Of a stretch of 64,000 nt of DNA, positions 23,593-64,000 are shown piece by piece. The stretch is taken from the NCBI GenBank assembly GCA_016748015.1, contig JAAOMT010000741.1, positions 584,727 through 648,726 on the forward strand, given 5' to 3'. The notes beneath the pieces were generated by a model that had not been told where the DNA came from, searched no databases, and saw nothing but the letters and a program-made list of their open reading frames with translations. The position numbers and the translations under genes were made by a program. This DNA is from Geosiphon pyriformis uo1 (lineage: Eukaryota > Fungi > Glomeromycota). Position 1 is the first letter of the stretch. Every line of letters starts with the position of its first letter.

Positions 23593-26500
23593 AAGATTAT
23601 CGTAAATCGGAAAAATCGTTCGTCGGCTACTTCCCAGAGTATCATATCTGATAAAGTGGAAAGACACTAAATAAATAAATCCCAAATTTTTGTTTAATTC
23701 AAATTTAGTGGTTGGTTAATTTGTACTAACCTGTATATAAATTTTCCAATAGTAATCGATTCTGATCGCATAATATCATTTATTATGAATCCCTTGGTTA
23801 TCCAATCCGATGTCTTAACCTTTCTTAACTCATTTCAATTTTTATACTCACCCTTTTTTTTTCATGTTTTGCTCTTTCCTTTCCATCCGAAATATTTAAT
23901 AGGTTGTTTAATTTTGATACAAAAACAACCTTTCACTTATACAAACCTACATACTTTTGTTTCGAAACACAAAAAAAAGAAAAAATTGAAGGAAAGTTTT
24001 AGATAATTGTTTCTGTAATGAGTGAAAATAATAAGTTGGTAGATTCAGATATTGTTTCTTAGTCATAATATTTTACATTACATATAAGTAATTGCTTTAT
24101 TAAATCTTTGTGTTTTAAGAGATTATTCATGTATTTGAAAATGAAAACCATATGATTGATGTCTTAAAAGCCAATTTTATTTACATTTTAGGAAAAATAA
24201 TAATATATAAAAGTATAAAAAATACCAAAATTAATAAAAATTATATTGTTATGATTGATTTAAGTAATTAATATATATGATAAGTATATAATCTGTATTT
24301 AATTTAAAATACTTAGTTATTATATTATATTAAATAACAATTAAGTCTTACTTATAAAAAAAACTTAAGTTAAAATTTTTATAATATAATTAAATTTAAT
24401 TAAGCCAAAATATATAATATATAAATTAATTATAATTTAAATTAATATAATAAATAGTTTATATTTATATTGTATATATTTTATTTTAGTAAATTATAAT
24501 TAAATTAGATTTATATAAGCAAAATTTTTTTATATTAATAATAATTTATTAAAATAGTATTTTTAATATAAATTTATATATTTTATATTATGAATTATTA
24601 AAAAAAAAACTTCTTTCTCTCTTATATCTCAAATTTTCCAAAGAACATAATTTTGATAAAAAAGTTTTTTATTTTTTCTTGTTGTCTTTGTCAATATTTT
24701 TTATCTTAATAACTTTTTTGTTATAAACTTGAAAGCTGTTTTAAGTAACAATATATATAAAAAAAAAGCACCCAAAAAGGCTTTTTATAATCTTGTTAAT
24801 GGTTTTTTTTTTCAAAAGAAGAAAGTTTTTTTTGGTAATATCAAATACTCTAATAATAAAAAAAACATTTCTTTGGTCAAATTTGGTTCTAATAATAATA
24901 TGTTTTTAAATATAGATGGTAATTTTAATGATAGTAAATATAATAGATCTGTACTTAGTATTAATAGTAGTTCTTTTCTTAATTTAACTGCTATTATTTT
25001 TAAGGTTAGAAAAGTGGCTTTTGCTGTGATTTTTGGCTTTTTTCTTGGTTTTTTTAATTTTAATATAAATAAAAAAGTCAAACCTCTCTTACTTCCTCTT
25101 AGTTTTTCTTTAAACAGAAAATAGATTGACTTTAAGATTACCAAAATTTAAATAAAAGTACTTATCAAAAAAATTTTTGTTTTGGACATTAATTTCTCAG
25201 TTATGGAAAACAAGTCAGCAATACTAAAGACTCAAATAATCAGAAAACTATTTTTAACAATTAATGATTTTGGGAGGACCATTACTTCTTCAAAATTTAT
25301 AGAAATTATCTGATTAATATTTATATCTAATAAAAGTTTAAAAAAACTGTATCATTAGCTGAAAATAAAAGAATCATTGTAAACAATAATGTCAAAAGAC
25401 AAAAAATTTGTTCAGATTAGACTGTTTTTATTAAAAATTTTCATAGATACACCAAAAAAAATAATCATCATAGTTTTTTCTAAGTTTAATTAAGTAATGT
25501 CAATTTAATTATAATTAATTAAGATATGGCAGAAAACTATAATGAAATTGACTGAATCAAATTAAATTGATTAATTGGCAGTAAAATGGTTATTTTTTAT
25601 CAGAAAAAATTTAATACATGTAATAAAAGCTGTGAAAAATTGTAAAATCTGAATGTTAAAAGATTAGTTTAAGGCACTTTTGTTTATTTTGTCTGTAAAA
25701 ACAACTGTCCATAATTTTGGTATTCTATTAGAAAAAACTAGTAAAAAAACTTGTATCATAAATTATTTATTTAATATTGGAAATTGAATTTATTATATAG
25801 TAATTGGCTTTGAATTAAAAAAAAATTGGATTTAGCTTTTTACATAGAATCTATTTTGAATAGTGTTAAGTTTTCTTGGACTAGAATGAATCTGATTTGT
25901 TGTCAGAAATATAGGCATTTTAAACATTTAGCTTTAAAGTGTAATACATCAGGTGTTTGTGTCTTGCTTTCTAAGAAAACATATAAAAAAATTGCTTTAA
26001 AAGAAAATTGTTTTTAGCTGGCTAGGTTATACACTAAAAAAAGTTATTTCTTATTTTGTTGCTTTTGGTGGCAAATCATAAGTGCAAATGGTTTTACTGG
26101 CTGCTTTATTTGATAATACTTGTTTTGATTCTGGTTTTGAATCTTTTTTTTTTAGTATATCACATGTAAAAGAAAGTCTTGTAGTTATTCAAGATAATTT
26201 GTCTATTAATATTTAATTGGCTTTTTTAGAATGTTTTTTAGAGCTTTTAACTAATTAAGTATTAGGTATTATCTGTAAATTAAGCATGGTAGATTTAATA
26301 TCTTTGGTATTTATTTTTCAATTTCAATTTCTACAGTGTTTGTTTTTTCAAATTCAAAATTGAATGTGAATATGGTTTTAAATAACCCACTTGTGTCATT
26401 CATCTTCTCTTTTTTAGTTATAAATAATATAATTTTAGATTTGGGTTTGAGTAAATTTAAAGTTCTGACCACCAAAATAGATAGATTAGAATCTAAAATA

Positions 26501-28906
26501 GTGGCTTTTAAAGTTTCTGTTAATTTAGTTTTAACAAAATTAGATCAGTTGTGTACTGGCTTGAGTTCTTTGGTGTTCTTTTTATCTTAATAAGTAATTT
26601 GGTTTGAAAATTTGCTATGTGCAATATTTGAGATATCAATGTTTTCACCAAGCAAAAAGACATTGTTTATTAGCATATAAAATTAGAAAATATAGTTTCA
26701 ATTATTATAAAAACAAAATTAAGATCTAATATTAGGTTATAAATTATAAATAAGTTTGATGGAGTTAGAATTTTTACTTTTGATCTGGATGTATATTTTC
26801 TTGGTACTGGTATAATCATAATTATGAATAATTTTTTGGCTCAACATATTTCAAAAATAAATAAAATTCTGGGTTATTTAATTTCAATATGTTTTTTGTT
26901 TAAAAACAAGCTTTTAATTACAATTTTGAGTTTATATGCTAGAACATCTGCTAGTATATAATTTGGTCAAGCTTTTAATATTAATTCTATTATTTTCAAA
27001 GCTGTTAATTCTAACTCTTTTGTGATTCTAGACAGCAATTTCAATAAAGATGATTCTAAAAAAAGTGCAAACTTAAGAAAATATTTGGATAGAGATCTGG
27101 TTAATTTATTTAAAAAACATTCTTTGATAAAATTTCCTACTTAGAATAATTTTAAAAGAGCCAAAAAAATTATTAATTACATTTTTGTTAATGAAAATTT
27201 GTCATCAACAATTATAATATATAAGATTAGTAATGTTTTTGAATTTTTTTGTTACAAATTATAAAGCAATTGTGATTTTAGTTGGTCTAAAAAATTTTTT
27301 AAATACATATCTAAATAGTATTCACAAGCAAGCAAACAAAGATCACTGAAAGTTTAATATTAAGAGTACAGATAATGCTAAATAAATCTGTTTTAAGAAA
27401 TGTGTTTTAGTTGAGTTGTTATTAACAGTGAATAAGTTTGTAAATACAAAAGCTCTTGATAAGTTGAATAATATATAAAAAAGTTTAAAAAGAGTAATAA
27501 TGAGTTTAGTAAATATTATTTTCTCTAAACTTTAATACAATAAGTTTAAATGTCCAAAAAATAAGCAATCATTAAAATTTTTTGGATTAAAATTACTGAT
27601 TGCCAGGATTATAAAAGAACTAAACACAGACAAAAAATCTGAATTTAATTATCTTTTTACAAAATAATTAATAATAGAAAACAATAAAACTTTCAAGATT
27701 GTATCTATAGTTTAAGATAATATAAATTCAGCAAATGTTATTAAACAATTATTATTGGTCAAAAAAAAATATAAAATATCAAAGTACTATAAATTAAAAG
27801 TTGCTAAGAATATAGCCATCAAAAAAACAATTAAAAAATGAATAGAAAACTTCAGTTCTAACAAAAAAAACATGATTAAAAGTGTTTTAAATTGAATTTT
27901 TTATAAGGTAGTTTTGAACTATTTGGTAATTGGAAAGAACTTAATTCTAAAACCAGAAAAGGTAAAGTTCAAAGTTAATAAAATCATAATAAATTGGATA
28001 AAAAAACACAAAATGCTTCCAATGTTGTCTATTACTTGGTTTAAACAATATATATCATTAAATTATATAAGAAAAAATACTTTTTTTAAGATTATAAACA
28101 AAATTAATATACATAAGCTAGTTATAATAATTGATGGCCTGTCTAATAATAAAGCAGTTGATTTATTGAACATATCAAATAAACTTTAGAAGCATTATAA
28201 TAATGCAATATTAGACTATTTGTTAAGTTTATTTAGTAATTAATAAAATTTTGATATTTTGGAAAAAAGTGTGAATTTAATGATTTCTAAACCATAAAAT
28301 TAAAAAAACATCTTAACAAATACACAGTCTATTGTACTTATTGAAATGGCTAGAAAAATACTATTTAAAATTTTGTCAAACTGTATTTTATTTGCTTGTA
28401 TTAGACATAATATTTTTTATGGTAATAACTTCTTAGTTTTAAAAAACATCTTAATTTAATTTTCTGTGCTTATAGTTGGATTAATAATAAAAGATGCTTT
28501 AAAAAAGAGTCAAAAAGTTTTGCTAGTTTTGTAAAACATATATAAAGTCTATAACTCTATTGGATAGTAACACTTAAAAACTAGTTTAAAACATATAAAA
28601 ATATGTAATAGATTTATTAAGTTTTTTGGAATTATATATTTAAACAGATTTAACAGAGTAATAATTAATTTTGGTTTTTTGAATAGATATAAGATACAGA
28701 ATAAACTGAATTAGAGTAAAGTTTTTTCATCACTCTTGTAAAGAATTTTTTATGATTCTTTGTTATGCAAGATCAAGAGACAGAAGCATTTGTATGAATA
28801 CAGAATTAATATAAACTTTATAGCAAAACAGACAGAATAGAGATAAATAAAAACAAATCTTTATTTTTTGTAACAGATAAATTTGTTGATAATATAATTT
28901 GGATAG

Positions 28907-29866
28907 TATTACTCATAAAAAAAGAATACAAAAAAAATAGTAGGAAAAACAAATAAGAAAAATAGACTAATAAAAGAATAGTATTTAATACATAAGCACA
29001 TTGCTTAGCAATATAAAGTATTGTTAGAGAATTATGGCACATTGCTCAACAATGTGCACATTGCTAGAAATTACAGACACATTGCTCAGCAATATAAGCA
29101 TTGTTTAAGAAATTATAGCATATTGCTTATGAATATGTAGAATCTTATATAACATAAATTATATATATATAATGAGAATATTAAAAGCAGAAAAAGTAAT
29201 TCAAAGAGAATTCAAGAATTTCTGAAGAATTCAATAAAGTTTTATTAATTTAGAACAATTCCCTTTCTTTTCTATTTATTAACTCTAATTTTAAGAATAG
29301 TTGCTATTAACTAAAATAGAATTATATAAATAAAATATTTCTTCAATTCTTCAAATCCATATTATTGTCATTTGTTTGAAAATCTAATTACTCTTTTATT
29401 TATCAATACTTTATGTTAATAAAATCTAATCCTTAATTACACTGGACCAATAGCTTTTGATTACAGCTATTAACAAGATACTAACTTTTTATTGTTTTGG
29501 CTTATTTTCTTTATCTCTTTTTATTTTTTATTTTTTCTTTTCTTTATTGTTTACTCATTAATTAATATGTGAAAGTACTAACATCAGGATATAGCATTGG
29601 TAAAAAATCCAAGAATAAGAGTAGACACTTGTAATTAAGAATAGCTTACCAGAAGATTGCTGGTCACCAAGCCAAAAAAAAATTGATGAAATTGCAATTC
29701 TGGAAAGTGACAGATAAAAACAACACTTGAATCTCTGTTTATTATACAAAAAACTCAAAACCTTTAAATCATCAAAACCTTCAAATAATACCAATTGTAT
29801 TAGCTATTAAACACCAAGTTATGGATTTGTTATTTGATTTGAGACCCCAAATAATTACTTGTAACA
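28907..29866. mobile_element. Solo LTR (family 2) inserted in the LINE A RT region
   Basis: Termini TATTAC (decayed TGTTAC)...GTAACA. 4-bp TSD ATAG. It splits the LINE codons ...IIWI/ENSQ. Internal ~21-bp GCACATTGCT.. repeats at ~28995-29135. Confidence 0.8.
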
Positions 29867-30823
29867 ATAGAAAATAGTCAGGCTTTAACACAATATATTT
29901 TGAATATTACTAGTAAATTTTTTGAGATTAATAATATTTCTATCAATAATAACAAGACTGATGATTTTTATCAATCAAAAAGTCATAAATACTTTTTTGT
30001 ACATTAATAGTTGGCCAATTTCTATAGCTAGATAAAATGAATCTTACAAATATTTATATATTTTTTTTATTAACAGAGGACTTGTTTAAGCTTAATTTTG
30101 CCAAAACACATTTATATGTTAAGTTTTTTTCTAACTTAATTCTCAAAAAAACATTTTCTAATAAACAATTTTTTATTTGATTTTATTAATTTTATAATCT
30201 ATTATTAGTTATTAAACACAGTTTTGTATTTAAAAGTATATGTCAAAAGTGAGATATTATGTTGAAAAAAATGTTAAAATTTAAAACCAATTTGTCAAAA
30301 AATTTTTTTAACAAGATTTTATATTATTCTACTCTTTATAAACTAAAAAAATTTGAGCAAATACAGACAAAAGACAAAATTGCTTCTCTAATTGGGTTTT
30401 TTAATATGTTTGGAATCCTTAACTAGTTGTTTAAATATTGTTTTTTGGATTTGCAAGTTCTGAAATAGACTTTAATAAATTTTTTGTAGTATTTTATTAG
30501 ATTAAGAATCAGTTTTGTAAATAATTTTTTGGCAGATATTATTAAAGTTTTGCTAAATAACAAGGTTTTTTTAGCCAACAACTTGCCTAATATGTTTTAT
30601 AGTACAAGTTATTTTTTTATGTCTAAAATTTTAAAAAACTTCTTGTATTATAATGTGATTTCTTTTTTGAAGTGCTTTGGTATTGTCTTTAATAACAAAT
30701 TTTTAGATAAATATGATTTAATTGTGAGTTGGAAGATTTTTCATCATTAAAAAAAATTGAATTTTAAAGATTTAGTACTTTTTTGGTTTAAGAAAACTTT
30801 AATCTATATAAATAATTACCTAA

Positions 30824-31611
30824 TGTTATTCATAGAAATTAGAAATTATAATAAGTAGATAAAATAAACAATCAGAAATAATTATAGTAAAAAAAAAATT
30901 CTAAAATTTTTCTTAAAAAATTGCAAGATTCCAAAATTCCAGAATTCCAAGATTCTTTTTAAAAGAATTAAAAAATTTCAAAAAATCTTATATAATACGA
31001 ATTATATATATATAGTGAAAGTATTAAAAGCAAAAAAAACAAACAATTTAATTCAGAACAACAATTTTTTCTCTTTAAAAGATAATTTTCTATAACTTGA
31101 AATGAAATTATACTTATATTAATAAACCATTTATTATTACTTGAATAAAAAAATATTAATCTATTTTATATTATCAACACTTTATATTGATAAAAGTGAA
31201 TACTTAATTACATTAAACCAATAGCTCTTAATTATGGCTATTAATGGAATACTAATTTTTTATTTTTTTTTTATTTTTGTATTTTGTTTTCTTTATTGTT
31301 TACTAATTAATTAAGAAATTAAGTACTAAATAATTGATGTCAAAAATAGCCTGGTAAAAAACCCAGAAACAAAAGTAAAAAACTTAAAAATAGCTTACCA
31401 AAAGAGCACAACTGTCAGAATAAACTGGTTATTATGCAAAAAAAAATTTTACAAAAGAAACTATTAAATTAAATTTTTGCTTATTATATAAAAAACTTAA
31501 CCAAAATCTTTAGACTTCAAAACCTTCAAAAATTATCAATATTCCTAATTATTAAGCACTAAGTTATGAGTTTGTTATTTGTTTTAACATCTCAAATAAT
31601 TACTTGTAATA
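30824..31611. mobile_element. Solo LTR (family 2) inserted in LINE A upstream of RNase H
   Basis: Termini TGTTAT...GTAATA. The 3' half is homologous to the 28907 LTR (…CAAATAATTACTTGTAA). Flanks CTAA/TCAA are compatible with a decayed 4-bp TSD. Confidence 0.75.
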
Positions 31612-33517
31612 TCAATTAGAATTGGTGATATTATTTTTGTTTTTAGCTGCTTGAATGTTATTTATTTAGAGAGTTTTTCAGATATTTAAGAGCATTTACA
31701 CAGACTATAAACTGATGTTTTTAATGTTTACATAAATAAATTTTTAAAGCTATTGGGTATTACAAAGATTGCTAGTAGAATAGTGGCTTATCTTTCTAAT
31801 ATTGGAATGAATATAAGTGTTGAAGTATATAAATTGCTATTTTTTATATTAACAGAACTTCAGGCAATTATTTTAACATTGAAATGTATACTTTTATCTT
31901 GTTTAATAGTTATATACATAAACAGTTAAGTGGTTTTAAATATATGTGTTTTAAAATTCAAGTTTTATTTGCCAAATTTTCAAAACAAATACTAAATAGA
32001 AAGACATTATATAACTAATTTGGTCAAAACCAAGAATATTTTGATTAAATAAGTAAAAATTAAAAGTCATTTGAGAAACAATGATAATAATAAAACTAAT
32101 ATTCTTGTATATGATGTGGTGCATTCAGGTTTTGTTTTTTTTAAGAGAATTCATAAAAAGTATATAATGGCTAATAGCCAGATAATATTAAGAAATGTCT
32201 GCTATTTTATTTGGAATATTTATCAAACTGTTTATCATGCTCAATAAAAGACTGGTTCAGACATTAAAGTCATGAATAAGACAATAATTAGTAATATTAA
32301 TTAGACTACTATTGTTAAAGTTTGGTATCTAAATTTGTATATGCTTTCAAAGTTCATAAACAAAATTTTGTCTGTCTTATATACATATTTAATAAAAACA
32401 GTTCACAAGAAACTGTTTGTTGCTATTAAAAAAAGACTTTATAACAAAAATTATCTTGGAGTTTTGTGTTTAATATGTGGTAATATTGAATTATTTGATT
32501 ATGTTTTTATTTGTTTAAGAGAAACTGAAACATACTTTAAGATTTTATTGAACTATATTAATTTATAAAAGTTTTTAAAAGTTGAATGTTCTTTGCTATT
32601 ATTTCCAGTGTTATGTATTTTTTTTTCTGAAATATCAGATATTGGTATTTATGTGGTTTTATGTAAAAATTTTGTTTTTAAGAATTGAATAGATTAGACA
32701 ATTTTAATTTTTAGCAATAAGAAAAGAGTTGTGTTAACAGTAATCAACTTTGCTCAACATTTGGCTAAAAAACATTAGAGTAAGCTATAACTATTAAGAA
32801 CAAAATTCAAGATAAATATAGAAAAAAATGGCATAGTTAATGAAATAAAATTAATTTCTGCTCTTTCTTGTAATGTATTTAATTGTTTATTAACAAAAGT
32901 TGTTTATCTGCTTTGTATTATTAAGTTTTTTGCTGTAAGTTTTAGTTTGTATAAAACTTGTTATTTTTTTTAAATATTTATAACAGTACAAGAGTATATA
33001 TAAATATATAATATTGTCTTAATTGGTCTAAATGACTAATTACATATAGTAAATATGTAAATCATATTTGGTTAAATTTACTTAGTTTGTTTTTGTATAT
33101 TAGATAATATTTAGACTATACTTATTAAATAATAATATTAAAAAATTATTAAATATTTTAAAATTATTTGCAAATTTATTTATTTTAATAAAAGTTTAAA
33201 TATTATATTTTAAAAAATTAAATTAAAATTTTTTTATTGTTTAATTAAATATATTTTAATTGTTATTTATAAACATAAAATAAAAATATTTTGTAATAAA
33301 TATAGTTTATGTTTTATTTATATATAACTAGTTATTTAAATTAATTATTAATAAACCAAATAACTTGAATAATTTAATTTAAAGACAATTTTAATGTTTA
33401 AATTACTATTATATAAAATTTTTAATACTTTGAGTTTTGTTTTAAATTTAATAAATATTAAACAAATAATTAATTAATATAATATTTTTGAATTTTAATA
33501 ATATATATTATATTTTT

Positions 33518-33520
<3 letters not shown>

Positions 33521-33549
<29 letters not shown>
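33521..33549. repeat. (AAT)n microsatellite in an AT-rich block
   Basis: Directly visible. Confidence 0.85.
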
Positions 33550-34221
33550 GTTTTTTAAAGTTTTCAATTTTAAAATCCAATTTTTATAATAAATTTTATT
33601 AATTTTGTATTGAATTAAAATACATAATTTAATTAATATTAAAATTTCAAAAAAACAAATTGAATTCTTTAATTTTATTGTTTTTTAATAAGATCTGCAC
33701 ATAAAATTGAATATTATAAAATTATGCTTAAAAAATATTTTGTGTACAAAATTCAAATTAAATAAATTTATGCTTTATTAAGTATGGTCCAATAAATTTA
33801 ATTATTTATAAATCAAGATAATATATTTTATAACAAAATTTCAAAATATTCTTAATGTTAAAACAATAATATTTAATAATTAAAACAAATGAATTAATTT
33901 TTAATATATAATTTATTTTTAAACAAATATCTAAACAATTATACGAATAACATTTTTTATAATTCAAACTAGAAATCAAATATGTAAAGCATTGAATGTT
34001 TAAAGTTGAGTTTAAATTAAGCAAGATTTTAAATAAAAGTTTTTGTTATTTTAACTTAGCTGTTATGTGTCAATCTCCTCTTATCAAATAACTTGATTAA
34101 AAGATCAGCTATTTTACGTCATCCGGTTTTCAAATCATTGATAAAAAGGACCCAAACTGGATACAGATTTTACGTAATACCTTAAACTGCAAGAAATATC
34201 AACGTTTATTTCTTGGACAAA

Positions 34222-36559: not shown

Positions 36560-38410
36560 TGACATTTTAATTCACAAAAAACCTTTTTTGAACAGATTAT
36601 AACAATACTTATTAAAATATTGATAAATAATAATTTAAATTAAAAACAGTTTTTTAATTTTATTTATTTATTTATCAAACAATAAAAATAAAAAAACTTT
36701 TTGAATTTAAAATTTAATTAAATAACATCATATGGGGAAAGTCCTAGTAAAAGTCACTAAAGTTCTAAATACGTAATTAACAGATGGACTATACTTGTTA
36801 ATTAAATAAAATTAAGTTATTTTTAATTTTAAAATTATAAAAATTATTTGTTTTAAATTATAATTTTTTTTAATGCTTACTAAATATAATTTAACTAATA
36901 TCTATTTACATATTTTTAATATTTTCAATTTTCAATTTTTGTTATTAAATATATAAAAATATGTATTTAAATATAATAAAAACAAACTAATAAAACATAT
37001 ATATATATACATAATTTTTTTTAGGCTTAAACAAGTGTATTATAATTAATTCATTATATTAATTGTAATTAATGCATTAATAATACATAATTAATTATTT
37101 AAACTTATATCAAAATCATATTGAGTTAAATTTTATTATTATTCAACGCAAAACTATCCAACTATAAATTATTTTATACAATTTAATTATTATATATTAA
37201 ATATAAATTGTGCTATAAAAAATATGTAATTAGTTATTTAAGCCAACTTAAACTATTTTAAATAAAACAAAAAAAACAAACTTTGTGCTTTAATCTTATT
37301 TATATAACTATTTAAATAATTATTTTTTTTAATAAATCTGTACAACTAAGTTTTAATAGCTTTCTTACTAATTCTGGTTTTTAATAATTTTAAATAAGTA
37401 CCAAATCAAACAAATTTTTTTTTACTTATAATAATATTTAATTTTTTAATTATGTTATTATTATTACAAAATAAAATTTTACCAAACTTATTTTTAAATT
37501 TGAAAAAGTTTTGTACATATTAATTATTATTCTGCCAAGATTTTTAATTTATGTTTTTAAAAAGCAAACTTAAAAATTTAATTTCATTATAAAAACTTAT
37601 TTAATTATCAAAAAAATGTAATTAAAGCAACCAAAAAACCAAAAAACCAATAAACTTAATTATTAATTTTATAAAAGCAAAAAACTCTTAAATTTTTATT
37701 TTTAAAAACATTAATCTGAAATTAACAATAATATTAGAATTAAAAAAGCATATAAATACCACAAAATTTGCAATATTAATATAAAACATAAAAATTTTAA
37801 AAAACTAAAGAACATTGTTTTGTAATTAAAAATTAATTAATCTAATTTAAACTTTAATATTTATAATAATACTAATATTTAAAAGTTTTTTATTAAGTAA
37901 AATTTATGTTAAAATACCAATTTTAAATAATAGTTATATTAAATGTTTTTTTAAACTTAAAAATAACAATAACAAATCTTAATTTCAAAAATTATATGAC
38001 TAAAAAAATTAACCAATTTAATTTAAAATATTTATAAAAAACAATAATTTCTTTTTAATTAACAAAAAATATTTTAAAATTGTTTTTATTATTAAAATTA
38101 ATTAACAAATAAAAACAGTTTTAATGTTTTTTAAAAACTTAAAATATATAATAATAATAATATATTATTATAAATTAACAAATTTTAATTTAATACCTAA
38201 AAACTTTATTAAAAACATTAAAATATAAATTAATTATTTTTAAAATTAAATAACTTAATAAGTTAATTATTTAAAATTATATGTTAAAATTTATTATAAC
38301 TTATTATATTAAACAATTTAATTATGTATTAATTTAAACCAGTTTTAATAAATAAATTTTTATTAAAAATTTTTAAAATCTTTATAACCTTAATTATTTT
38401 ATTTTATTGT
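36560..38410. other. Extremely AT-rich non-coding block, probably terminally decayed repeats
   Basis: Very few G/C bases and no ORFs. It abuts the 3' end of LINE B. Confidence 0.55.
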
Positions 38411-42028: not shown

Positions 42029-42030
42029 TT

Positions 42031-42045
42031 TGGTGCTCTTCCATA
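42031..42045 (+). promoter_or_regulatory. Primer binding site (TGGTGCTCTTCC...)
   Basis: TGG 2 nt after the 5' LTR, complementary to a tRNA 3' CCA. The tRNA identity could not be determined. Confidence 0.7.
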
Positions 42046-47697: not shown

Positions 47698-47753
47698 TAC
47701 CAACATCAACACCAACAAACTTAACAACAGAACAAACAACAAAATCAACAACA

Positions 47754-49140: not shown

Positions 49141-49324
49141 ATTTTACAATAATTCTCTAATAAAAACACAAAGACAAAAATAGTAAATAATTACAAAACA
49201 CCCAAACCCAAAAACAAATAAAAACCCCATATCCAAAAATAATTTTCTTTATTCTCTCTTTTCATAATTAGTCAATTTTATCATAATTATTTCCCGAAAT
49301 ATTCAACAAATATTCCAAAAGTTA

Positions 49325-49936: not shown

Positions 49937-49970
49937 ACTTCAATAGAGCTCAGTCTTGAGGAAAAAATTA

Positions 49971-50920: not shown

Positions 50921-53900
50921 ATGCTTAACTTCACATAACAGAGGATCATAAAATATGCACCACAGAAGAAGAGAAAAAACTTTTTCTTGATCCAAATCAT
51001 TATACACACAATAACCATTTGTCAAACCAAAATCTGTTATAACTCTGTTGGTATGACTTTTATGAATACTACCAAAGAATTGAATGAATTTGCTGCACAT
51101 CTTAATCCTGACCAAGCTCTTCTCAAGATGTTCCTAATCAACCAAATTGTATGCTTTCCACATGTCCTGCAAAACCAGCCAAAGCTTTCTGTTCTTTTCC
51201 AAAGTATCTTCAATAACCAAACCAATTGCAAAAATGGGAGACTAAGTTGATGTGTCCTTTAAAACTGAAAAGTTGTCTTCACAAAGAACATTGAAAGTGC
51301 TGTATGCTAAAAAAATCCTATCGGAAAGAATCTTGAAAAGAATCTTGTGAGCTGTCTCAATTAAAACAATAGGACAGACATTCATCAGAACATCCTTCCA
51401 TTCATAAGGCTTAGGAATCATTGAGACTCAAGCCTTCTTCCAAGAACCAGGTACAGATTCACAAGCTAAACAAGAGTTCAAAAGCACCAAAAGCAGATTA
51501 AGAACTGATTCATTACAATGCTTTCATAGTTCATTCGAGATACCTGAAAGGCCAGCAGCTTTGCCATCAGGCAAATGAAAAACCATCTCATATAATTTAT
51601 TAAATTCAATTGAACACATCACACCAGAAAAAGCTTCATCAAAAACATACTCCAAAGATTGATATTAATGGCTCCAATTATCGGCAATATTATTGACCAC
51701 CCAATGTCTTTTAGTCCAACCCTCCATAATTGTATCTATCTTAGATTTGACCAACTTAGGCTCCAAAACCAACTCCTTGTCCACAACTAAATAATCCAAT
51801 ACCATCTTACAAAAGGGATGCTCCAGCACACTCCTGATGATATGACTTTTGTTCAACTCAAAATTCTCCATTTTCTTACAAATTGCCTGTTTGATGTGAA
51901 ACTCTTTAGCACATCTCGATTCTAACAATTTGGAAGATCGATAAGATTTCCTTGCCATAACTAGCTCAGAATGAACAGCATCAAAACTAGAACCAGAAAT
52001 AAAAAGAGATTTCACTTCTGCTGCATCACCACTATCAAGTCTATTCCAAGTTTCTAATAATGAAGCAAAATCTTTACTAGAAGCTGAACAAGAAGCCTTT
52101 ACTAATTTTAACACCAACAATTCGAGTTTATAAAACTTAAAAAACTTTTTGGTAAAAATACCATCAAAATTCTTGAACCATTTTTTCTGAAAGTACCATC
52201 AGCTGAAAAAACCATTATCTTGTGAACAACAGCCCACATTGCATCCAGATCTGAAAATGTTACAGCTCTAGCAAATTCATTCAAAAACATAATGGCATTA
52301 GCTGCTATGGCATCCTTAAACTCACACTATTTTACAACATTGGCATTTTTAACATCAAACTTTTAACAATTCTTATTAGCTTGCTTTCAAAGCAAAAGCA
52401 ATTGCACATCCAATAAACCACTAAGACCCACAAAGACAGCAACAGCTTTGTGATTAGTATTAAAATAGTTCACAACATGAGTTATACTACTATCTATTAT
52501 AGTATTAATCAAACTTAAAGAAATGAGAATATAATTAAAAGCTTTAGTGACACCATGAAAATTGGTCTATGTAGGCATTTTGATGAACAAACTTCCCCTT
52601 AGAGAATCAACTAAACCTAAATTGAAGCACTTCCTGAAGTTAGCACATTTTCAGGCACTGTCTTCATTGAAATTACCACCCAGAATAACAAAAAAGGACT
52701 CATTTACTGCTTTTGCAATAAAAGAGTTGATTTCACCAGCCTGAAAAGACCAAACCACTGACAAAGTACCAGCATAGAGCCCTAAAATTGACACAGAAAG
52801 ATTATTCTTGAAGAGTAGTTTGAGGAAAAAGAGTCAATTGGAAACTTTGAGAACCTTACACACATGTTTTGCCAAAGAATTGTCCATAATAATTGCAACA
52901 CCAGAACCCAAATGACCAGAGTCCAAACCAAAAGTGAAAACCCAAATACTATCAAATTTATTCATAATCTATGGGCAGATTTTGTCCTTTAATTTAGTCT
53001 TAGTAACCACAGAAATCAAATTGTTTATCTCTTTATGCCAACAAATTATATCATTCTGTTTTGTAGAATTGTTCATATCCTTAACATTGCATGTGGCAAT
53101 CTTCTAAACTAGACCAGTCATTGAGAAAAAGGTTTGGGAAGTACACCACCTGCTAAAATTGAGCCATTAAATCTTGTTATTAGACTTAGAACTAAAGCAG
53201 AAAGTTTTTCTAACATGTTTTCCAATCTTTTTACTTCAGGAGAAGTAGAAGAATCCAAAATTGCAGCAGTCTCATTACTTATAGTCTTACCCAAACCCTC
53301 TCCTATCACTACATCACCCACCTAATTCTGTGATGAGGGAGTCACTGGCAGCTGACATCCAGGGCTAGACTGAGAAACTGCTAACATGAATGAATTCAAT
53401 CTCTTAGCCAACTTACCAATTTGTTCTGTGAGGCTGGCAAGACTGCTTTTCAAAACACCAAACTTTTTTTCAATATCATTCATATCAAGGAAGGTAGGCT
53501 TCATCTCCAAAGAGGAGCCAGAATTAACCAGCACATTTCACACAGGGAGAGGAGAAAAAAAAGTTCCATTAGTAATCTTCACCTAAGAAGTCCCATCAAA
53601 AACAACAGGACGAGCAATCAGAGCCGAATGCTTGGCATAGATGGTTGCCAACTTGCTTTTATCTATGTCTGAAAGAGATTTGCTAGAAGGTTTTCCAAAG
53701 GAAAAATTCCCATTCACAGCACAGTTCAAAGATATATGACCCAATTTCCCACACTTAGCACATTTAGAAAAACCCAAATAAGACCAATGCAGATTTACAC
53801 TTCTTAAAACTAGAGTAGTTCCCATAACAGTATCTAATGACTCAGCAGAATCAAAACAAACAGTAGTGCACCTGGCCTGAGCATAAGAAACCAGGTGATG

Positions 53901-55669
53901 ATCAATTACACAAGTTTTCCCACCCACTAAAGCAACATAATTCCAAATATCATGTGCATTGGTTCCCATTAGCAGAGTGTACAAAAGGGCTCTATAAATA
54001 TCTTGTATATTCCATAATTCTTTGTCTATGTCGGATCTAGCAACATGTACTGCATCTTTTCCAATCAGGATGGACCATTTTGCTGTGACCAAATCAGCAT
54101 GATTTACTTGGTCAAATTCAACCACTGCTTTTTGTCACAGCCCCACCAGCTGCATTTTGATCAACTTAATTAATCTGAACTCAGATAGTGCAGCATGCAC
54201 AGCCTCTGTTGATGTCTCAATTGGAATTTCCTTTAACACCACAGCCTAATTTGAACGTCTAAATGATCTTTTGAGATTGGTGTTTACTAAGATCTTTACT
54301 TCTTCAGTTTTTTTTGAAGCCTGTGCCAAACTCAATTCAGAAGTGAATGTTGCTCTGATGATCTCAGCAAATTTTGAGAGAATAGAGGCCCTTCTTCTAA
54401 ACCATTGATTTTTGAAAACAACTTCCTAACTATCACAAGTTTTTCTTGAGCAGATTTCTCAACAACATTTTCCAAACTGATATTCAAAGCGAAAAATTTT
54501 CTAACAGAAACATTGACCAAGTTCTTTAAAGGGAGAGAAAAAACTACAGATTTGTCTAACAGTATGTTGTCATTATTATTGCCCAAAAAGTTAATTTTTC
54601 CCAGCAGCTTTCTCAGTACTCTTTTGGTAATAGTTTTTGAACTTTTAGACATTTGTTCCGAACCCTCTCTAGTGAAAGCTTCACCATCTCCATAATCAAA
54701 GCTGGTTTTTTCAACCAAACACTCCTCCTCCATGTCCACACTATCAGACTCAGTGGTATTACTGGTCTCAGAACCCCAAAAATGATTATTTGACACTTTA
54801 GTAGTAGCGAATTTCTGATTACTAATGTTATCTTCCAAAGCACTACCTCTTCTCTTTTTTCTAGGTTCAGTCGACTTAACACCAATATTAAAACTAGATT
54901 CCATAATAGACTTGTTCAGAACAGCAATATTAGGGCCAATGGTAGCCTTGTAATCAAGCAAAGATGGTTTGAATTTTGCATGCTGAATGATAAAAAACTT
55001 CTTTCAGAAAAATTTTTGGCTCTTTTTTGGGAATTTAGGATGAACAAGAGAAAGAAGTTTTTTTTTTTATTTTTTTTTTATTTTTATTTAACTTAAATAT
55101 TTTGTATAAATTTTTAATTTGGTTAAAGCTTATAAAATTAATATATAATAAATATTAAAAGTTAAAAATTTTGAAATTTTTCAGTTTTAATTTAATTTAA
55201 TTTAAATATATATTAAACTCTTTAAAAATTTTAACACTAATTTTTCTAACTTAAAAAATCTGAATATATTTTTAAATAAATTTAAATTATAGTTTTAAAA
55301 CCAAATCTTATTAAATATTTTATTAATTAATATAGTTAACATTTTTTTAAAAAACCAAAAAATCAGTTTAACAAACTTTATTACAGTTTTTTAATTGTTT
55401 ATACTTTTTTTAATAATTTTTTTTTAATAATTAATAAATTAATATTTAAATTATAAAATTTTTTATTAATTTTTTTAACAATCATAAAAACAAAAAAATT
55501 TAATTTAAATAAAAAAAATAAAAATAAAAAAACCATATTTTTATTTTTAAAATTATAATATATTATACTTAATAATAAAGTTTTAATTTGTTAAATTTTA
55601 TTTTTTTTGTATTAAAAATATTTGTTTAAAAATTTACTTTTATTATTAGTTTTAAATTTAATATTAATT

Positions 55670-57750
55670 ATAAAAAAACTTTTTTCTTTTATTAATTTAA
55701 ATTCTTAAAAGAACAGTATTTTAAAAAAAAATTTGTTTTTTGTCTTTATTTTTTGTTTATTATTTACTTAATTATTCAATTTAATACTTTTAAATCTTTT
55801 GTATTTAACAATAAAGTTGTTAGTAGCAATAGCATTATAATTATGAAAAAAACAATTAAAAATATTAGTGCTAATTTAAATAGAAGTAATATATTGTTAA
55901 AAAAAAAATGTAGAAATAATGTTTTGGTTAATAATAATAATAAATATGAATCTACTGTTTTTTGAAAAAAATATACAAATAATAATAAAAAAAATTAAAA
56001 ATAGATAATATTATTAAATTAGAGAGTATAAACATAGAAAATAAATATAGTATAAAAGAAACCAATATGAATTATAGTAATAAAAATAAGACTAATAAGA
56101 AAAACATTAGCATAATTCTCAAGAACAAAAAAGTGATTACTAAATTGCTAATAAACAAACTTTTGGGCAAAATAAATTTTTTTAACATAAATAAAGTAGA
56201 TAATATAAATAATCTAATTATTTTGTCTCTTTTTCTTAAATGTTTAGTTTAAGTTCTTGTTAAAAAGTTATTTGCTTTGAATTTAAATTTAGAAGTAGTT
56301 AAAAAAAAATCAGCCCAAAAAAAACTCAAAATGACCAAAAAATTATTTTCAAAAATTAATAGTTTTAAACAAGATATTTATTTTCTTAAAATTTGTTAGA
56401 ATTATTAAAGTAATATTTACTTTTAAATTAAGTTTGGTGCTAGTAACAGATAAAGTTAAAGATATAAAAATTCTGATAAACACTAATTTCAAAAAATCTG
56501 CTAAACATTTGGATTAAGCTGTAATTGTTAAAAAAATACTAATTAAGATATTAATAGAGACTATATATACTGTGCTTTTTAAATTTAATATAATTGAGTT
56601 AATTAAAATATAATTGATAAAGATGTGGTAAAAGACTGTGATAAAATTTGGGCAGTCTAATTAAATTAATTTAGCTGTAGTAAAATGATTTATTTTAATT
56701 AAAAAAAATGTTGTGTATATTATTAGAACAGATTTGAACAAAAAATTTTAGAATGCAAAAAACAACAATAAAGTATTGTTTTATATACTATCAATAAAAA
56801 CCAATACTTATAATATCTAAAATTTTATTTAATTAATTGGTAAAAAAATGTGTACTATTAACTATTATCTAATTATATATATTTGAATTAAATGTGTTTT
56901 AATTCTAATGTTTTATTAGATGCTATTATAAGAAATATGCCTATACTAAAAAGTACTAACTTATACTAGTTTTGCTTAAACATAACTAAATACACCAAAT
57001 ATAAAAAATTGAGTTATATATTAATTAAATACTCAGCTGGTATAAAAGTTTCTATAAATGATTTCTTTTAAAGAATTTTTTTAAAGACAAATAAAAGCAG
57101 GCTAAAAGCTATTTATGCCAAAAATCTAGTTTTTATTGTTCATTCAATGTCTTTTAATAGTGTTTTTTAAGCAAAAATTGTTGGTAGCTTTTTATTTTTC
57201 TCTTTTTTTGGGCAAAATAGTTTGTTAAAAGTTAATTTCTCATTAAAAATAAAATTTTCTCTACTAATTACATTGAATATTAATAATAAGTTTACAGTTT
57301 TTGAATACAGTCTTGTTGGTTTTATAAAAAAAATTGGTAAGTTAACAAAAAAATTAAATGTACTTGAATTGATAGTTTTTTAGCTATGTTTTAAATGTTA
57401 ATTGTTAATAACTTTTTTATTATAAGATCAAAAAACAAATATAACAATGAGTAAAAGTTTGAGTGCAATTATTAGTAATAAAACTATAATAGTAAAAGTT
57501 TCTTTATCTTCTATAAACATTATTAAATTAAAAATAAGCATAAACAATTTATTTAATATGGTTTTAAATTTTTTGGCCAAAATAAAAATATTGGTTAAAG
57601 TTTAGATATCTTTTCTCACTAATAACTGATTTAGTTTAGAGAATTGCTATGTGCAATATTTGAGGTATCAATATTTTTGCAAAGCAAAAAAAACATTGTT
57701 TATTAATATATAGATTCAGATAATATAATTTTTATTATTATAAAAACAAT
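55670..57750 (+). mobile_element. LINE copy C: most decayed; 5' UTR + ORF1 + start of ORF2, interrupted by LINE D
   Basis: Remnants collinear with ORF1 of B/D (KLLGKINF, KKLFALNLNL, RIAMCNI) break off at ~57750, where the 5' end of D starts. Confidence 0.8.
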
Positions 57751-57751
57751 A

Positions 57752-60700
57752 ATTATAGGAAAAACAATAAAAACTTCTTTCTCTCCTTCATTCTAAATTC
57801 CAAAAAAGAGTCAAAAGTTTTATTGAAAAAAGTTTTTAGCCATTCAGTATGACAAATCCAAACTGTTTTTTGATTTCAAGGCCACTGTTGGTCCTATTAT
57901 TGCTGTCATGAAGGAGGTTGCAAAAAATTCTGGTGCTGGTGGTGGTTTTAGACCTGTCCTGTCAAGAAAGAAAAGAAAGGGTGGTGTTTTGACTAAGAGT
58001 GTTTTGGTAAGAAGGAGTGTTGTTGAAACAACTGGAAATCATTCACGACATTCTGAGACTAGTGACACTACCGAGTCTGAGAGTGTTGACATAGAGGAAA
58101 AGTGCCTTATTGAAGAGACCAGTATTGATTATGATGAAAAGGATGTCTTTGATGGTGGAGACCTCAACCAAACACCAAAGAGCTTAAGTATCAAAATTAA
58201 GACCAAGAAAGTATTGGGCAAACCACTGGGCAAAATCAACTTTGAAGATGGCTTTGATAATAGTGATTTTCTGAATGAGTCTGCTCTTTTTTTATCTTCT
58301 CTTCTACTTAAACCTTCCATTCATGTTTTTGTTTGCAAATCCTTCGTTTTGGATATCAATTTGGTGGCCGTTGCTGGGAAATCTTCTTAAAAAAAATTGA
58401 ATTTTATCAAAAAAAAATTTTCAGGTGTGAATGGTTTTGGGGAGGCCTCTACTTCCTCAAAATTTGGTGGGATAATTTGTGTGACTTTTACTTCTAAAAT
58501 GGCGATGATGGTCGCAGAAAAATTGGCTCATGATTGTGGTGTTATAGTAAACACCAATCTTAAGTGTCTGGTAAACATTCGTATAAATTGGGATATTGTA
58601 ATTAAGGAGATTCCTGTTAATACATTGATTGAGGCAGTGTGTACAGCTATTTCCGAATTTAAGATTGTTGTGTCAATTAAAATACAGTTGGTAGGATTGT
58701 GACAAAAAGCAATTGTCACTTTGGGAGATTCTGATCAGGCTGATTTGTTGGCATCCAAGTAGTCTATTCTTATCAGGAAAAATGTGGTCTGGGTGGCCAG
58801 AGCTGATGTTGATAAACAGACTTGGAATTTTAGAGATGAGTTTAAGGCGTTGCTTTACACTTTTCTTGTAGGAACCAATACACATGATCTTTGAGATTTT
58901 ATTGGTTCAGTGGATGGAAAAACATGTGTTATTAAGTGCAATTCAGTTAACTACACTCAGACATGCTGCACCACAGTGTGTTTTAAGTCTGGGAGCAATC
59001 TAAATTGGGCTCTGGCCAACACTCTGGTAATAAAAGATATCAGTCTCCATTGGTTGCGCCTGTTTGTTGCCTTGTGTTCCTCTTACAATTTTCTTGGTCA
59101 TACATCTAGGAATTGTAAATCAGCTGGTGTGTTTTTGAGTCCGAAGGGCAAGAGGGCTTCTCTTTCGGCTCAGGATCAGTTTAAATTAGCAAAGATTTAT
59201 GAAAGGAAGTCTGTTCCTGTTTCTCATCCTTTGGCTTTTGGTGGGAAGACTTGGGTGTCAGTGGTTGGCTCTATTCTTTCAGGCACTTCTCTTGGATATG
59301 ACTTTCAGCTTGGTTTTATTGAAAATGGTAAACCTCTCCCTCCAGTAGTAAATGATTTGAAAAAACGTTTGGTTAGCATTGAAAGCAGTCTTGTCAGCCT
59401 TGTGGGACAAATTGGTGGATTGGCTAAGAGATTGGAATCATTCATGCCAGCAGTTTCCCAGCCTAGCCCTGGATGTCAGCTGCCAGTGACCCCCCCATCA
59501 CAGAATCAAGGGAAGGATATAGTGATGGGAGTGAGTTCGGGTAATGCCACTAGTAACAAGACTGCTGCCATTTTGGGTTTAACTGTCTCGCCTGAGGTTG
59601 TGAAATTGGAAAACATGTTGGAAGGTCTTTCTGCTTTAGTCATAAGCCTATCAGCACACTTAGATAGTTTGGCTTTGGCAGGTGGTGCTTCTTTTCTACC
59701 TTTTTCTCAATAAGTAGTCTAGTATGGAAAATTGCCATGGGTTAAACAATCCTGCAAAGTAAGATGATATCATTCATTGACACAAGGATATGAACAATTT
59801 GGTTTCTATTTTTATGGAGTCAAAGCTTAAAAAGAAAGTTCACCCATGGTTGACTAACAAATTTGATGGTGTTTGGGTTTTTACTTCTGGTCTGGATTCT
59901 GGTTTTTTGGGTGCTAGTATGTTGATTGTTGTGAATTTTTCTTTAGCAAAACACGTCTGCAAGGTCTCTAAAATGTCTGGTCGGCTCCTATTCATCAAGT
60001 TGCTTTTCAAAAATAAACTTTCAGTGTCTATTTTGGGGCTCTATGCTGGTGCTTTATTGGTGGTTTGGTTTTCTCAGGCTGGTGAAATCAACTTTTTCAT
60101 TGCTAAAGCCATTAATGAGTCTTCTTTTGTTGTCTTTGGTGGTGACTTTAATGAAGATGGTTCTCAAAAGTGTGCGAGTTTCAAAAAGTGCCTTGAGTTG
60201 GGATTGGTTAACTCTTTGATTGGAAGCCTGGCCATTAAGATGCTCACTTGGGCGAATTCTAGGAGTGTCATGAAAACTATTGATTACGTGTTTGTTTCAC
60301 TGAATCTGGTCAATTCTTTAGTACATTGTGGTATTTCGGACATCAGTGAATATTTTGATACAGACCACCAGGCTGTGTCTGTATCTATAAGCCTGGGTGG
60401 TTTATTAGATACACATTTGTTTTCTCTTCACAAGTAGGCAAATAAAAATCATTGGAAATTTGATGTCAAAAATACCAGTAAGACTAAATGGCTTGAGTTT
60501 AAGGATGCTATGGTTGCTAACACTACTATGTTTTTGGGTACTTTTGGTGATACTGTAAAGTTTTTTGATCTTGGTGCTATGTGGAACGTCATTCGCAAGA
60601 TCATGGTTCTCTCAGCTGGTGGTGCTTTCAAGAAGAGATGGTTCAAAGATTTTAATACAGTTCGCAATAAAGTATTGTCTAGGTTTCATAAGCTGGAACT

Positions 60701-63700
60701 GTTGGTTTCTAAGCTGGTGAAGGCTTCTTATTTGAATTCTAGTGTCAGTTTTGCTTTACTTTTGGGTACATGGGATAACTTTGACTCTGCTGGTGCTTTA
60801 ACAGTAAGATCTATGTTCTTTTCTGGTGCTAAATTTGATAAAATTTATTCTGCTCTGACCAAAGTGAAGAGGTTATACCACTCTTCTAAATTGCTGGAGT
60901 CCAAGCGCACTAAAAAAATTCACATTAGGCAGGCTATTACCAATAGGATGAAGAGTTTTGAGCTAAATAAGGGTTGTACAATCAGAAATGTGTTGGAATG
61001 TCCCTTTTGCAAAGTGGTTTTAAACCATCTGGTCGTGGGTGATGAGTTAGTTCTTAAACCTGATTTGGTTAAGTTCAAGGTGGATGCTATCATGAAAAGA
61101 TAAACCAGAAAGCGTGTAGTGGTTGATAATATTTCTGATACTTGGTCTTGTCAATACCAACCTTTGGACTATGTTTTTGATGGTGCTTTTTCTGGAGTGA
61201 TGAGTGAGATTGATTTTGATGAGTGCATTGTGTGATTACTAGTCTTCCTGATGGGAAAGCTGCTGGTCTCTTGGGCATCTCTAATGAGCTTTGGAAACAT
61301 TGTGATAAGTCAGTTTTGGGTTTGCTTTTGGTTCTTTTGAATTCTTGTTTGTCTTGTGAGTTGGTGCCTGGTTCCTGGAAGAAGGCTTGGGTTTCAATGA
61401 TTCCCAAACCTTATGAGTGGGAGGGTGTTCTCACAAATACTTATCCTATTGCCTTGATCAAAACAGCTTACAAGATTCTATCCAAGGTTTTTTCAAATAA
61501 GATCTCACTGGCTTGCAGCTCATATGATGTTCTGCATGGTAACAATTTTTTGGTTTTGAAGGGTACAACAACTCAGTCTCCTATTTTTGCAGTTGGCTCA
61601 GTAATTGAGGATACTTTGGAAAAAAACTGGGAACTTTGGCTTGTTCTATAAGACATGTGGAAGACATATGATTTAGTTGGCTGGGAACACCTTGAGAGGA
61701 GCTTGATTAGGATCAAAATGTGTAGTAAATTTGTTTGCTTTTTTGGTAGTATTCATAGAGACCAAACCAACCATGTTATGACAGATTTTGGTTTGATTGA
61801 TGGTTACCGAGTGTTTGATGAGTTGAACTAAGGTAAAGTTTTTTCTCCTCTGCTGTGGCACATATTTTATGATCCTCTTTTGTGTGAAGTCAAGTATCAA
61901 GAGAGTATGTGTGATTATAGGCTCAATTCTCATTTTGTTTCTGAGAGTGGTCGCACTGAGTCTCAGACTGGGCTTTCTATCTTTCTTGCTGCTGGTGCCT
62001 TTATTGATGATACTATTTGGGTTGGTAGCAGTCAGACTGCTACTCAGCATATTCTCAACGTTGCTAGTGAATTTTTTCGAGTCAATAATATTTCAATTAA
62101 TAATGACAAAACTGTGGCCATTCCAATCAACAGCAGGGTCAGTGTTCCGTCTCTTTTTATTAGTGGTTCACCTATTTCTGTTGCCCATAGAGGGAAACCT
62201 CATTGGTATCTTGGTATTTTTTTGTCAATTGAGGGTCTTTCAAAGTCTAGCTTGGCTAAAGCACATTCAAATATTCATTTTTTTACTAATTTAGTTCTAA
62301 GGAAGGTGGTTTCAGATAAGCAGTTCTTGTATCTGGTGTCAGCAGTTCTCCATTCCATAATTGGCTACAGAATGCAGTTTGGCTATATTCCTGTTGGTGT
62401 GTGCAATAAATGGAATGCTCTGATTCGCAAGGGCTTGAAGCTAAAAGCTGGTCTTCTGATAGACTTTCCTAGTGATACTATTCACCATCCCTCTTTTTAT
62501 GGTTTAAAATCTTTTTTACAGTGTCAATCTGAAAGTAAAGTAGCTTTGCTTATTAGTTTTGTGAACTCTGGCAGGATCTTGGGGTGTCTGTTTGGTCACA
62601 GGTCACATGACTTACAGATTCTGTATTGGTGGCCCATTCACCTTTTGATTTTTTCTGTTTGTATTCGTGTCAGTGTTTCTAATAATTTCTTGGCTGGTAT
62701 GGTTTACATTCTCCTTAATTGCAATTTGTCTTTGGGTGGCTCTTTGGCCAGTGCTTTTCAGTTTTGCGATGGGGTTCCTATATTTGTTGTTCTTGATGAG
62801 TCTTTGTTTTTCAAGTTTTTATTTTTTTTCTAGTGTTTTGATGTTGCCTTCATGGATCAGTTCTGTGATCATCATGACATTGTTTTTAGCTGGCACACCT
62901 TCAAGTGATGGAAGAGGCTGGACTCTTGTGGCCCAGTTTCTGAATAGTTTAAACTTTTTGTTGCATTTCTTATGGCTTCTCATTCATCTTTTACAGCCTC
63001 AGTTGGTACTGGTCTTCTTAACTTTTGTGAGTTGGATGATTTTGTGGCCACTCGTGGTTGTCTTTCCCAGATTGACGTCAATAGTTTGTCTGTATATATG
63101 GATGGTTCTTTGAAGTATTTGGGCACAGTTGATTGTAGAGCTGGGGCTGTCATTTTTTTTGAGGACATTAATTTGGGTTTGGGTGTCGGTGTTCAGGGTT
63201 TAGTGTCATCTACTTTAGTAGAATTACAGGCTATAACATTGGCTTTGGAGTGTGTGTCTGCAGCTTATTCTGTTAATTTGTTTTCAGATAGTCAAGCAGC
63301 TTTAGATGCTTGTAGGTCTGAGTTAAGCCTGGTGTGCCCTGACTTTTACAATTGATGTCGAGTGTCGGCATATTTGGAATGTTATCTACAGTAAGAATTT
63401 GAGAATTAGTTAGCACAAAGTTAAGAGCCATTCCAGCATTTCAGGGAATGACTGCACTGATAACATTGCTGATGCTGTATCTCTATTTGGTTGGTATCTT
63501 TTTCCTCACATGGATGAACATTTTTTGTTGGTGGATGATAGTGTTGTTTCTGGTAATTCTAGACACTTTGTTTGAGATGTTTATCATGCAGTTTGTTATG
63601 CACACTGGGAGATCAGTTCCAGTTCTGGATTTCTAGCTAGTAGTTTGCGTTCAGATGTTAACTGGCTCAGTTTTTCTAGAGTTTGGCACTCTGATTTGCA

Positions 63701-64000
63701 TATGGCCACTGGTTTCATTAGCAGGCTCACTGCTGATACTTGTACTTATCTTATAAAGACTTTGCACTGTTGGCTTCCTGTGGCTGTCCAGAAATGCATT
63801 TACAATAAATGTTATCCTAGTATCCTGTGTCTGTATTGTGGTAAGGTAGAGGTTTCTGATCATGTGTTTTCTTGTGTGGTTGATGATTTGGCTTACTGTC
63901 AGGTTCTGGAATCCTGCATGTCTTCTTAGAAGTCACTTTCTGAACTCTCTCTTTCCTCTTTGGTTGTGTTGCAGTTTATGTCGACCTGTGCTTCGGATTT
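57752..64000 (+). mobile_element. LINE copy D: least decayed; ORF1 57908-59713, ORF2 59710 to beyond the window (APE endonuclease, RT, RNase H, CCHC)
   Basis: GGDFNE, IDYVF, TDH (EN); KAAG, WKKAWVSMIPK, AGAFIDDTIW (RT); VYMDGS, ELQAITLALE, DSQAAL (RNase H); CLYCGKVEVSDHVFSC. Confidence 0.93.

Follow-up and report, generated by a model that had tools for sequence, protein, structure and literature searches.

Does a fungus of the Glomeromycotina mutate its own repeats? Arbuscular mycorrhizal (AM) fungi are said to lack repeat-induced point mutation (RIP), and the question is raised by 64,000 nucleotides of the Geosiphon pyriformis uo1 genome (GCA_016748015.1, contig JAAOMT010000741.1, positions 584,727 to 648,726, forward strand; hereafter the window), in which CpG is nearly gone from about 24.2 kb to the window end, a host gene at 34–36 kb excepted. 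A preliminary description of this DNA had proposed a RIP-like, repeat-restricted loss of cytosines from its retrotransposons. We find that these transposable elements (TEs) carry a C>T signature that is real, strong, and apparently unreported so far. On sequence-level tests, this signature fails as canonical RIP and resembles methylation-coupled repeat mutation.

Self-alignment and Pfam resolve the following elements, including long interspersed nuclear elements (LINEs), a Ty3/Gypsy element with its long terminal repeats (LTRs), and a control (o/e, observed/expected CpG; RT, reverse transcriptase):

25140..33650, + strand: LINE copy A, in advanced decay (GC 0.21), its 3' tail AT-rich; boundaries approximate
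37900..41017, - strand: LINE copy B, 3' part with RNase H domain, separated from the 5' part by the Gypsy insertion
41018..42028, + strand: Gypsy 5' LTR (TG...CA)
42029..49970, + strand: Ty3/Gypsy internal region (gag, protease, dUTPase, RT-RNase H, integrase, SH3), interrupted by stop codons (gag/protease: 3 Q>TAA)
49971..50920, + strand: Gypsy 3' LTR, substituted relative to the 5' LTR at 74 sites, 70 of them by transition, and set apart from it by one 61-nt gap
50921..55090, - strand: LINE copy B, 5' part
56129..57763, + strand: LINE copy C, 5' fragment, decayed furthest of the four (GC 0.186, CpG absent), ending at the start of D
57741..64000, + strand: LINE copy D, with the smallest shift to AT (GC 0.383), continuing past the window end
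12300..13630, - strand: dead DUF7869 element (control), with a W>TGA stop, a frameshift and a gap of ~85 codons, within a CpG-rich block (o/e 1.03)

The Gypsy element is complete (41018–50920, with dUTPase) and sits within LINE B. Its 4-bp flanks mismatch at two positions, which would fit a target-site duplication whose single CpG decayed on opposite strands. Among the matches listed, every named LINE homologue (119) and every Gag homologue (120) is a G. pyriformis protein; one of the latter is 100% identical to the Gag of the window over 72% of that Gag. Exact look-ups of three host open reading frames gave no match.

The LTR pair differs at 74 of 948 columns (41 C/T, 29 G/A, and 4 transversions), i.e. 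transitions make up 95% of the differences, and the first 203 aligned columns hold exactly the 12 differences and 11 transitions counted earlier. CpG is the most mutable context, with 16 of 26 sites changed compared with 54 of 256 non-CpG sites (P = 3e-5), and 54 of the 70 transitions fall at non-CpG sites. There, the rates in CpA (20/105), CpC (9/43), and CpT (25/108) are alike (P = 0.76); transitions extend beyond CpG, as the preliminary description had claimed. A 5' T raises the rate in this noncoding pair (30/93 with, 23/162 without; P = 0.001), and C/T and G/A changes are both present in both LTRs.

Because LTR differences are unpolarized, and because the four LINEs are diverged subfamilies whose pairwise differences are not all post-insertion, we took polarity from family proteins stacked on the window DNA, scoring amino-acid changes from the family consensus for which just one base change can account. 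The stacks comprise 119 Gypsy copies (363 codon sites) and 119 LINE copies, the latter with references B and D, which share the same proteins and are thus not independent. In the Gypsy stack, C:G>T:A changes reach 910/12317 (7.4%) vs 71/23379 (0.30%) for T:A>C:G and 0.11–0.23% for transversions. The LINE stacks give 8.9% vs 0.79% with reference B and 9.0% vs 0.70% with reference D, and each transversion type stays at 0.11–0.57% across all stacks. The scored C:G>T:A sites are essentially non-CpG. Where the amino acid fixes the context, CpA, CpC, and CpT still mutate at 5.9–11.1%, 5.2–9.3%, and 5.9–8.9% in all stacks (5.9%, 9.3%, and 5.9% in Gypsy), so that hidden CpG is rejected as the source of the non-CpG signal.

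A 5' T is again favored in the stacks (12% vs 5–9%), with TpC about 1.5–2-fold over other non-CpG contexts, while ApCpA/GpCpA sites mutate at 4–11%. CGN-type Arg positions have decayed in 57% (526/923) and 63% (734/1163) of cases, which by our own arithmetic, and with a rough choice of Arg columns, puts the CpG hazard per base at about 5-fold the non-CpG one. Rates at coding-strand C and G are symmetric (5.8/9.2, 9.8/8.3, and 9.1/9.0%), and per-copy loads in Gypsy are narrow (interquartile range 2.1–4.1 per 100 codons). The copies in the window follow the same pattern, with codon changes (C>T:T>C:transversion) of 29:3:0 in Gypsy, 57:3:7 in B, 51:6:3 in D, and 131:6:28 in A. In sequencing reads, among the 40 best-supported rows of ~4,570, a family majority of at least 60% opposes the window in 23 (the 17 rows short of this majority were not counted), and 20 of these 23 are non-CpG C>T changes in the window copy. 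As such, the C>T excess across CpA, CpC, and CpT is strongly directional, post-insertion, and present on both strands, and contexts rank as CpG (about 5-fold) > TpC > other CpH >> T>C and transversions.

The four LINEs are homologous, at 58–68% DNA identity. Their GC falls from D (0.383) and B (0.35) to A (0.211) and C (0.186), and CpG o/e from 0.19 and 0.11 to 0.01 and 0.00, in the order D, B, A, C that had been described. The order in GC stands, but separate loads for D and B do not, since 14% and 15% of their conserved codons are changed; the series is thus D ~ B << A < C, with C placed by DNA alignment only, as it has no aligned codons for protein polarization. LINE A retains a single CpG in 7.5 kb and has 49% of its conserved codons altered. 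Decay through CG loss and Trp or Gln stops was described correctly, W>TAG/TGA and Q>TAA/TAG being the main stop routes in the decayed copies. For the proposed nesting of D inside C, the 5' junction is visible, the coding region of C being interrupted at ~57750 where D starts; the second side, and hence the rest of C, would lie past the window end. The Gypsy element has 8% of its codons changed vs 15% in the surrounding LINE B, i.e. the nested, younger element carries about half the load, as a clock predicts. Accumulation looks slow and steady, although many rounds of RIP could blur strand runs.

How far is the signature restricted to repeats? The dead, low-copy DUF7869 element has a balanced spectrum of codon changes (9 C>T, 4 T>C, and 10 transversions), which differs from Gypsy, B, D, and A each at P <= 1.3e-4. 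At the DNA level, against 45 de-replicated metagenomic relatives from 80 fetched, it shows CpG>TpG at 1/29, CpH>T at 5/196, and T>C at 14/453 with a 90% consensus, and 1/29, 9/226, and 34/539 with an 80% consensus. Relative to the transversion clock, C>T runs at 25–46x in the retroelements vs ~5x in the control (our own arithmetic, on slightly different site sets). The control has at least 2 Geosiphon paralogues (60–66% amino-acid identity) and no visible skew, but for triggering by homology these paralogues may be too diverged to pair. In a CpG-depleted metagenomic DUF7869 cluster, C>T exceeds T>C only 1.5-fold at non-CpG sites, similar to CpG-rich clusters, so CpG loss alone does not bring the signature, with the proviso that these clusters mix selection and unknown hosts.

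Composition of the host DNA points the same way. The TE spectrum implies an equilibrium GC of 5–10%, while 21 host introns have a GC of 22.6% and fourfold sites (GC4) 31.2%, both above it; the implied GC>AT/AT>GC ratio is 2–3.4 in introns and fourfold sites vs 9–18 in TEs. The introns are the 21 plausible ones of 7 genes from a simple gene predictor, with the DUF, PPR 3', and opposite-strand models excluded. Old TE-derived tracts (GC 11–19%) have low TpC (0.55–0.83) and high GpC (1.7–2.6), unlike introns, and this is the fingerprint expected from the context ranking. Host genes keep their CpGs, as stated in the preliminary description (o/e of 1.32 in the PKA exon and mostly of 0.5–1.35 in 1-kb windows across genes), and the equality of TE and neutral single-copy rates at non-CpG sites that would have spoken against its proposal is not seen, the skew being absent from the DUF7869 control. 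Short tandem duplications at 16095–16330 and 8555–8678 have too few differences to serve as controls, and two sequencing runs matching short pieces of host genes show no differences there. Restriction to repeated DNA is therefore seen on one dead low-copy element plus intron and GC4 composition, a small control.

What process could produce such a signature? The explanation we consider fairly probable, by analogy with other fungi, is that broadly methylated, silenced retroelements lose C:G to T:A by gradual deamination. TE chromatin would carry non-CG 5-methylcytosine (5mC) from a DIM-2-type enzyme and CG 5mC from DNMT1/DNMT5; the methylated bases would deaminate, spontaneously or with enzymatic help, faster than they are repaired, repair in heterochromatin being presumably weak. 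On this reading, the post-insertion losses of C:G pairs, which are scattered as single events over both strands and all dinucleotide contexts, would accrue gradually over mitotic divisions, with element inactivation as the likely net effect.

Several fungi offer precedents. In Rhizophagus irregularis, of the same subphylum, TEs are reported as CG-methylated and silenced while genes keep CpG (PMC8647823; PMC8298701), and in Rhizophagus, liquid chromatography-mass spectrometry finds 32.5–49.5% of all C methylated (PMC8298701), which, with the genome so rich in AT, would be more than CpG sites can account for by themselves. The clade of AM fungi is reported to have DNMT1, DNMT2, DNMT5, DIM-2, and RID (PMC8298701), contrary to another review that lists RID as Ascomycota only (PMC13297926). 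Phycomyces TEs are reported, from whole-genome bisulfite sequencing, as methylated in CG and CHH (3.4% vs 0.9% genome-wide; PMC11258239), and this ratio appears close to the CpG/non-CpG mutation ratio in Geosiphon. Broad-context methylation of the kind reported for Rhizophagus and Phycomyces could yield a broad-context signature with no new mutator, and the earlier argument that deamination explains only methylated contexts, and hence calls for one, does not hold (PMC8298701; PMC11258239).

In Zymoseptoria tritici, the repeat mutation reported for the Dim2 system is methyltransferase-linked and needs no sexual cycle, with repeat C>T raised more than tenfold in mitosis, at CpA only (PMC8016269). 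Restriction to repeats, C>T direction (>95% there), and the inclusion of non-CG cytosines are shared with Geosiphon (PMC8016269); the latter differs in its flat 3' context besides CpG, its 5'-T bias, a host outside Dikarya, and an enzyme that is putative. The methylation-linked CpG (TpCpG) decay reported for Basidiomycota and Tuber also has CpG as its strongest target, nearly eliminated, and Microbotryum (TpCpG) shares the favored 5' T (PMC4352252). CpG loss in TEs and not in genes is likewise what plain CpG decay predicts, but non-CpG C does not mutate at background rate in Geosiphon, where most events are non-CpG (54 of 70 LTR transitions) and run at 25–46x the transversion rate.

A number of points weigh against methylation-coupled decay. 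Its methylation and methyltransferase steps would be borrowed from other fungi and not from Geosiphon data, and no methyltransferase specificity that can be cited predicts the preference for a 5' T. In Zymoseptoria, more than 98% of events are reported at CpA with CG spared (PMC8016269), while CpG is the top target in Geosiphon, so the CpA specificity of a Dim2-type system is missing here. Non-CpG changes show no proximity to ancestral CpGs beyond chance (P = 0.71), by which spreading from CpG is rejected. The protein stacks register only non-synonymous, non-stop changes in predicted genes, in copies that are not independent. The control consists of a single ~1.3-kb element and 23 polarized codon changes, some of them perhaps older than the death of the element or its entry into this genome. 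Finally, selection or biased gene conversion may sustain intron GC, and CpG is in deficit in introns too (o/e 0.56; 11 vs 19.6 expected).

Beside this mechanism, we note an MBD4-like G:T/G:U mismatch glycosylase gene at 2492–4063 (- strand; PDB MBD4 match, E = 3e-12), seemingly intact in a simple gene model. Enzymes of the MBD4 class repair deaminated 5mC, and the presence of this gene bears on the mechanism.

A bolder version, which we regard as possible but distinctly less probable than methylation-coupled decay, is that Glomeromycotina have their own methyltransferase- or deaminase-driven repeat mutator, biased to a 5' T and without preference for CpA, which would actively convert retroelement cytosines in vegetative growth. 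It would be either a RIP analogue or an ancestral, context-free RIP that predates Dikarya and is missed by CpA-based indices.

The alternative closest to the original proposal is a relaxed-context variant of RID-type RIP that would sense homology and target duplicated DNA during a cryptic stage of sex or nuclear pairing, and we find it improbable. In canonical RIP, which depends on RID, precedes meiosis, and is set off by homology regardless of sequence, each round leaves numerous mutations that cluster and frequently share a strand. As in Neurospora crassa (RID/DIM-2), C:G>T:A changes in the window are in excess and concentrated in repeats, TE open reading frames (ORFs) acquire stops, relics are AT-rich, and borders with host genes are sharp. 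The 95% share of transitions between the LTRs would suit such a variant, as would the restriction to high-copy retroelements (summed Gypsy depth of 1e5–5e5 vs ~80 for single-copy contigs, a rough measure), the lack of a near-identical Gag copy among the matches listed (best 86–87% amino-acid identity), and the RID reported in the AM clade (PMC8298701). Unlike Neurospora RIP, there is no CpA preference in the dinucleotide contexts of the LTRs (P = 0.76). The composite RIP index is essentially negative, from -0.80 to -0.20 in A, B, D, and Gypsy and +0.11 in C, with a substrate index of at least 1.02 throughout. The search for strand-coordinated clusters finds no same-strand runs of neighboring mutations in either LTR (P = 0.71 and 0.28) or any stack (P = 0.14, 0.47, and 0.89), mutations are not clustered (P = 0.84), and loads are even among copies. 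The genome is TE-swollen, and the review that confines RID to Ascomycota (PMC13297926) also speaks against it. The earlier proposal of a repeat-targeted, broad-context cytosine mutation thus survives in its breadth, direction, and contrast with the control, whereas its RIP label, in the specific sense, is not supported.

Marginally less credible is that unmethylated C is deaminated in TE chromatin, either spontaneously and with poor uracil or mismatch repair or by a TpC-preferring APOBEC-like deaminase, with CpG decay as a separate, ordinary process. The 5'-T preference in three data sets argues for it, and mismatch repair and nucleotide excision repair are reported as less effective in Arabidopsis TEs (10.64898/2026.08.04.742834). 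This preference is, however, merely 1.5–2-fold, ApCpA/GpCpA sites still mutate, and T>C and transversions are not raised, contrary to a general repair failure. APOBEC-type editing of cDNA is strand-asymmetric (G>A) and occurs before integration; it is rejected, given the strand symmetry of the stacks and the LTR-LTR differences, with both kinds of change in both LTRs. RT error is rejected as well, as the load is far too high and the LTRs differ from each other.

Genome-wide AT-biased mutation, perhaps from a recent mutator, could combine with CpG deamination and be visible in TEs through absent selection, but this seems more doubtful still. The genome is AT-rich, introns are low in GC with a mild CpG deficit, some intergenic DNA has 17–19% GC, and the control is small. 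Against this stand the balanced spectrum and intact CpGs of the dead DUF7869 element, the much lower GC>AT/AT>GC ratios of introns and fourfold sites, and the TpC-low, GpC-high fingerprint, which is missing from introns.

Geosiphon is a light-exposed soil-surface fungus, but ultraviolet damage, poorly repaired in silent DNA, is very unlikely and largely refuted as the main cause, although it could contribute to the TpC excess that favors it, because C without an adjacent pyrimidine is heavily mutated (ACA/GCA 4–11%; 6/46 in the LTRs) and only 1 tandem change occurs among 43 CC/GG doublets.

In the literature searched, to which the Geosiphon genome paper did not belong, there is no earlier report of the signature in Geosiphon or AM fungi. 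The available parts of the Rhizophagus papers describe methylation and no mutational signature (PMC8647823; PMC8298701), and one of them states that RIP signatures are undetected in Gigaspora margarita and Mucoromycotina (PMC8647823). A survey of 1,239 genomes reports RIP-like k-mer signatures as confined to ascomycetes (PMC12543289); Geosiphon is absent from its text and from 12 of its 19 supplements, the remainder of which could list it. Geosiphon TEs are covered in PMC11952901, whose accessible text does not use the word RIP.

With CpA undepleted, the Geosiphon signature escapes standard RIP indices. Should cytosines in TEs mutate at 5–10 times the background rate whatever their context, dates from LTR divergence and age landscapes of TEs would be inflated for this lineage, the low GC of the genome would in part be left over from TEs, and the passage from methylating repeats to mutating them may be older than Dikarya.

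Other features of the window accompany these elements. Within the Gypsy element, the dUTPase lies at 45227–46081 (+), between protease and RT, and three 21-nt tandem units at 41218–41280 in the 5' LTR are without counterpart in the 3' LTR (the 61-nt gap). AT-extreme tracts at 10600–12080, 24150–24700, 33050–33700, and 55090–55780 (GC 10–15%, no CpG) align weakly with one another and with LINE 3' tails; they are probably end-stage TE relics, although low-complexity convergence could mimic homology.

The CpG-rich block that holds the control (12100–16400, - strand; GC 0.42, o/e 1.03) also contains intron-bearing ORFs of unknown kind and a tandem duplication of ~110 nt (16095–16330). Close relatives come from Ambispora, from soil metagenomes, and from a Moeniiplasma endobacterium (one protein, P0254), a hint at a mobile unit. 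Among metagenomic DUF7869 relatives, a cluster (L015–L078, e.g. L026, L050, and L072) has a CpG o/e of 0–0.5 with no non-CpG C>T excess, which is plain CpG decay in another organism. A dispersed 5S rRNA gene (6263–6381, - strand; Rfam RF00001) is a short, GC- and CpG-rich repeat without decay.

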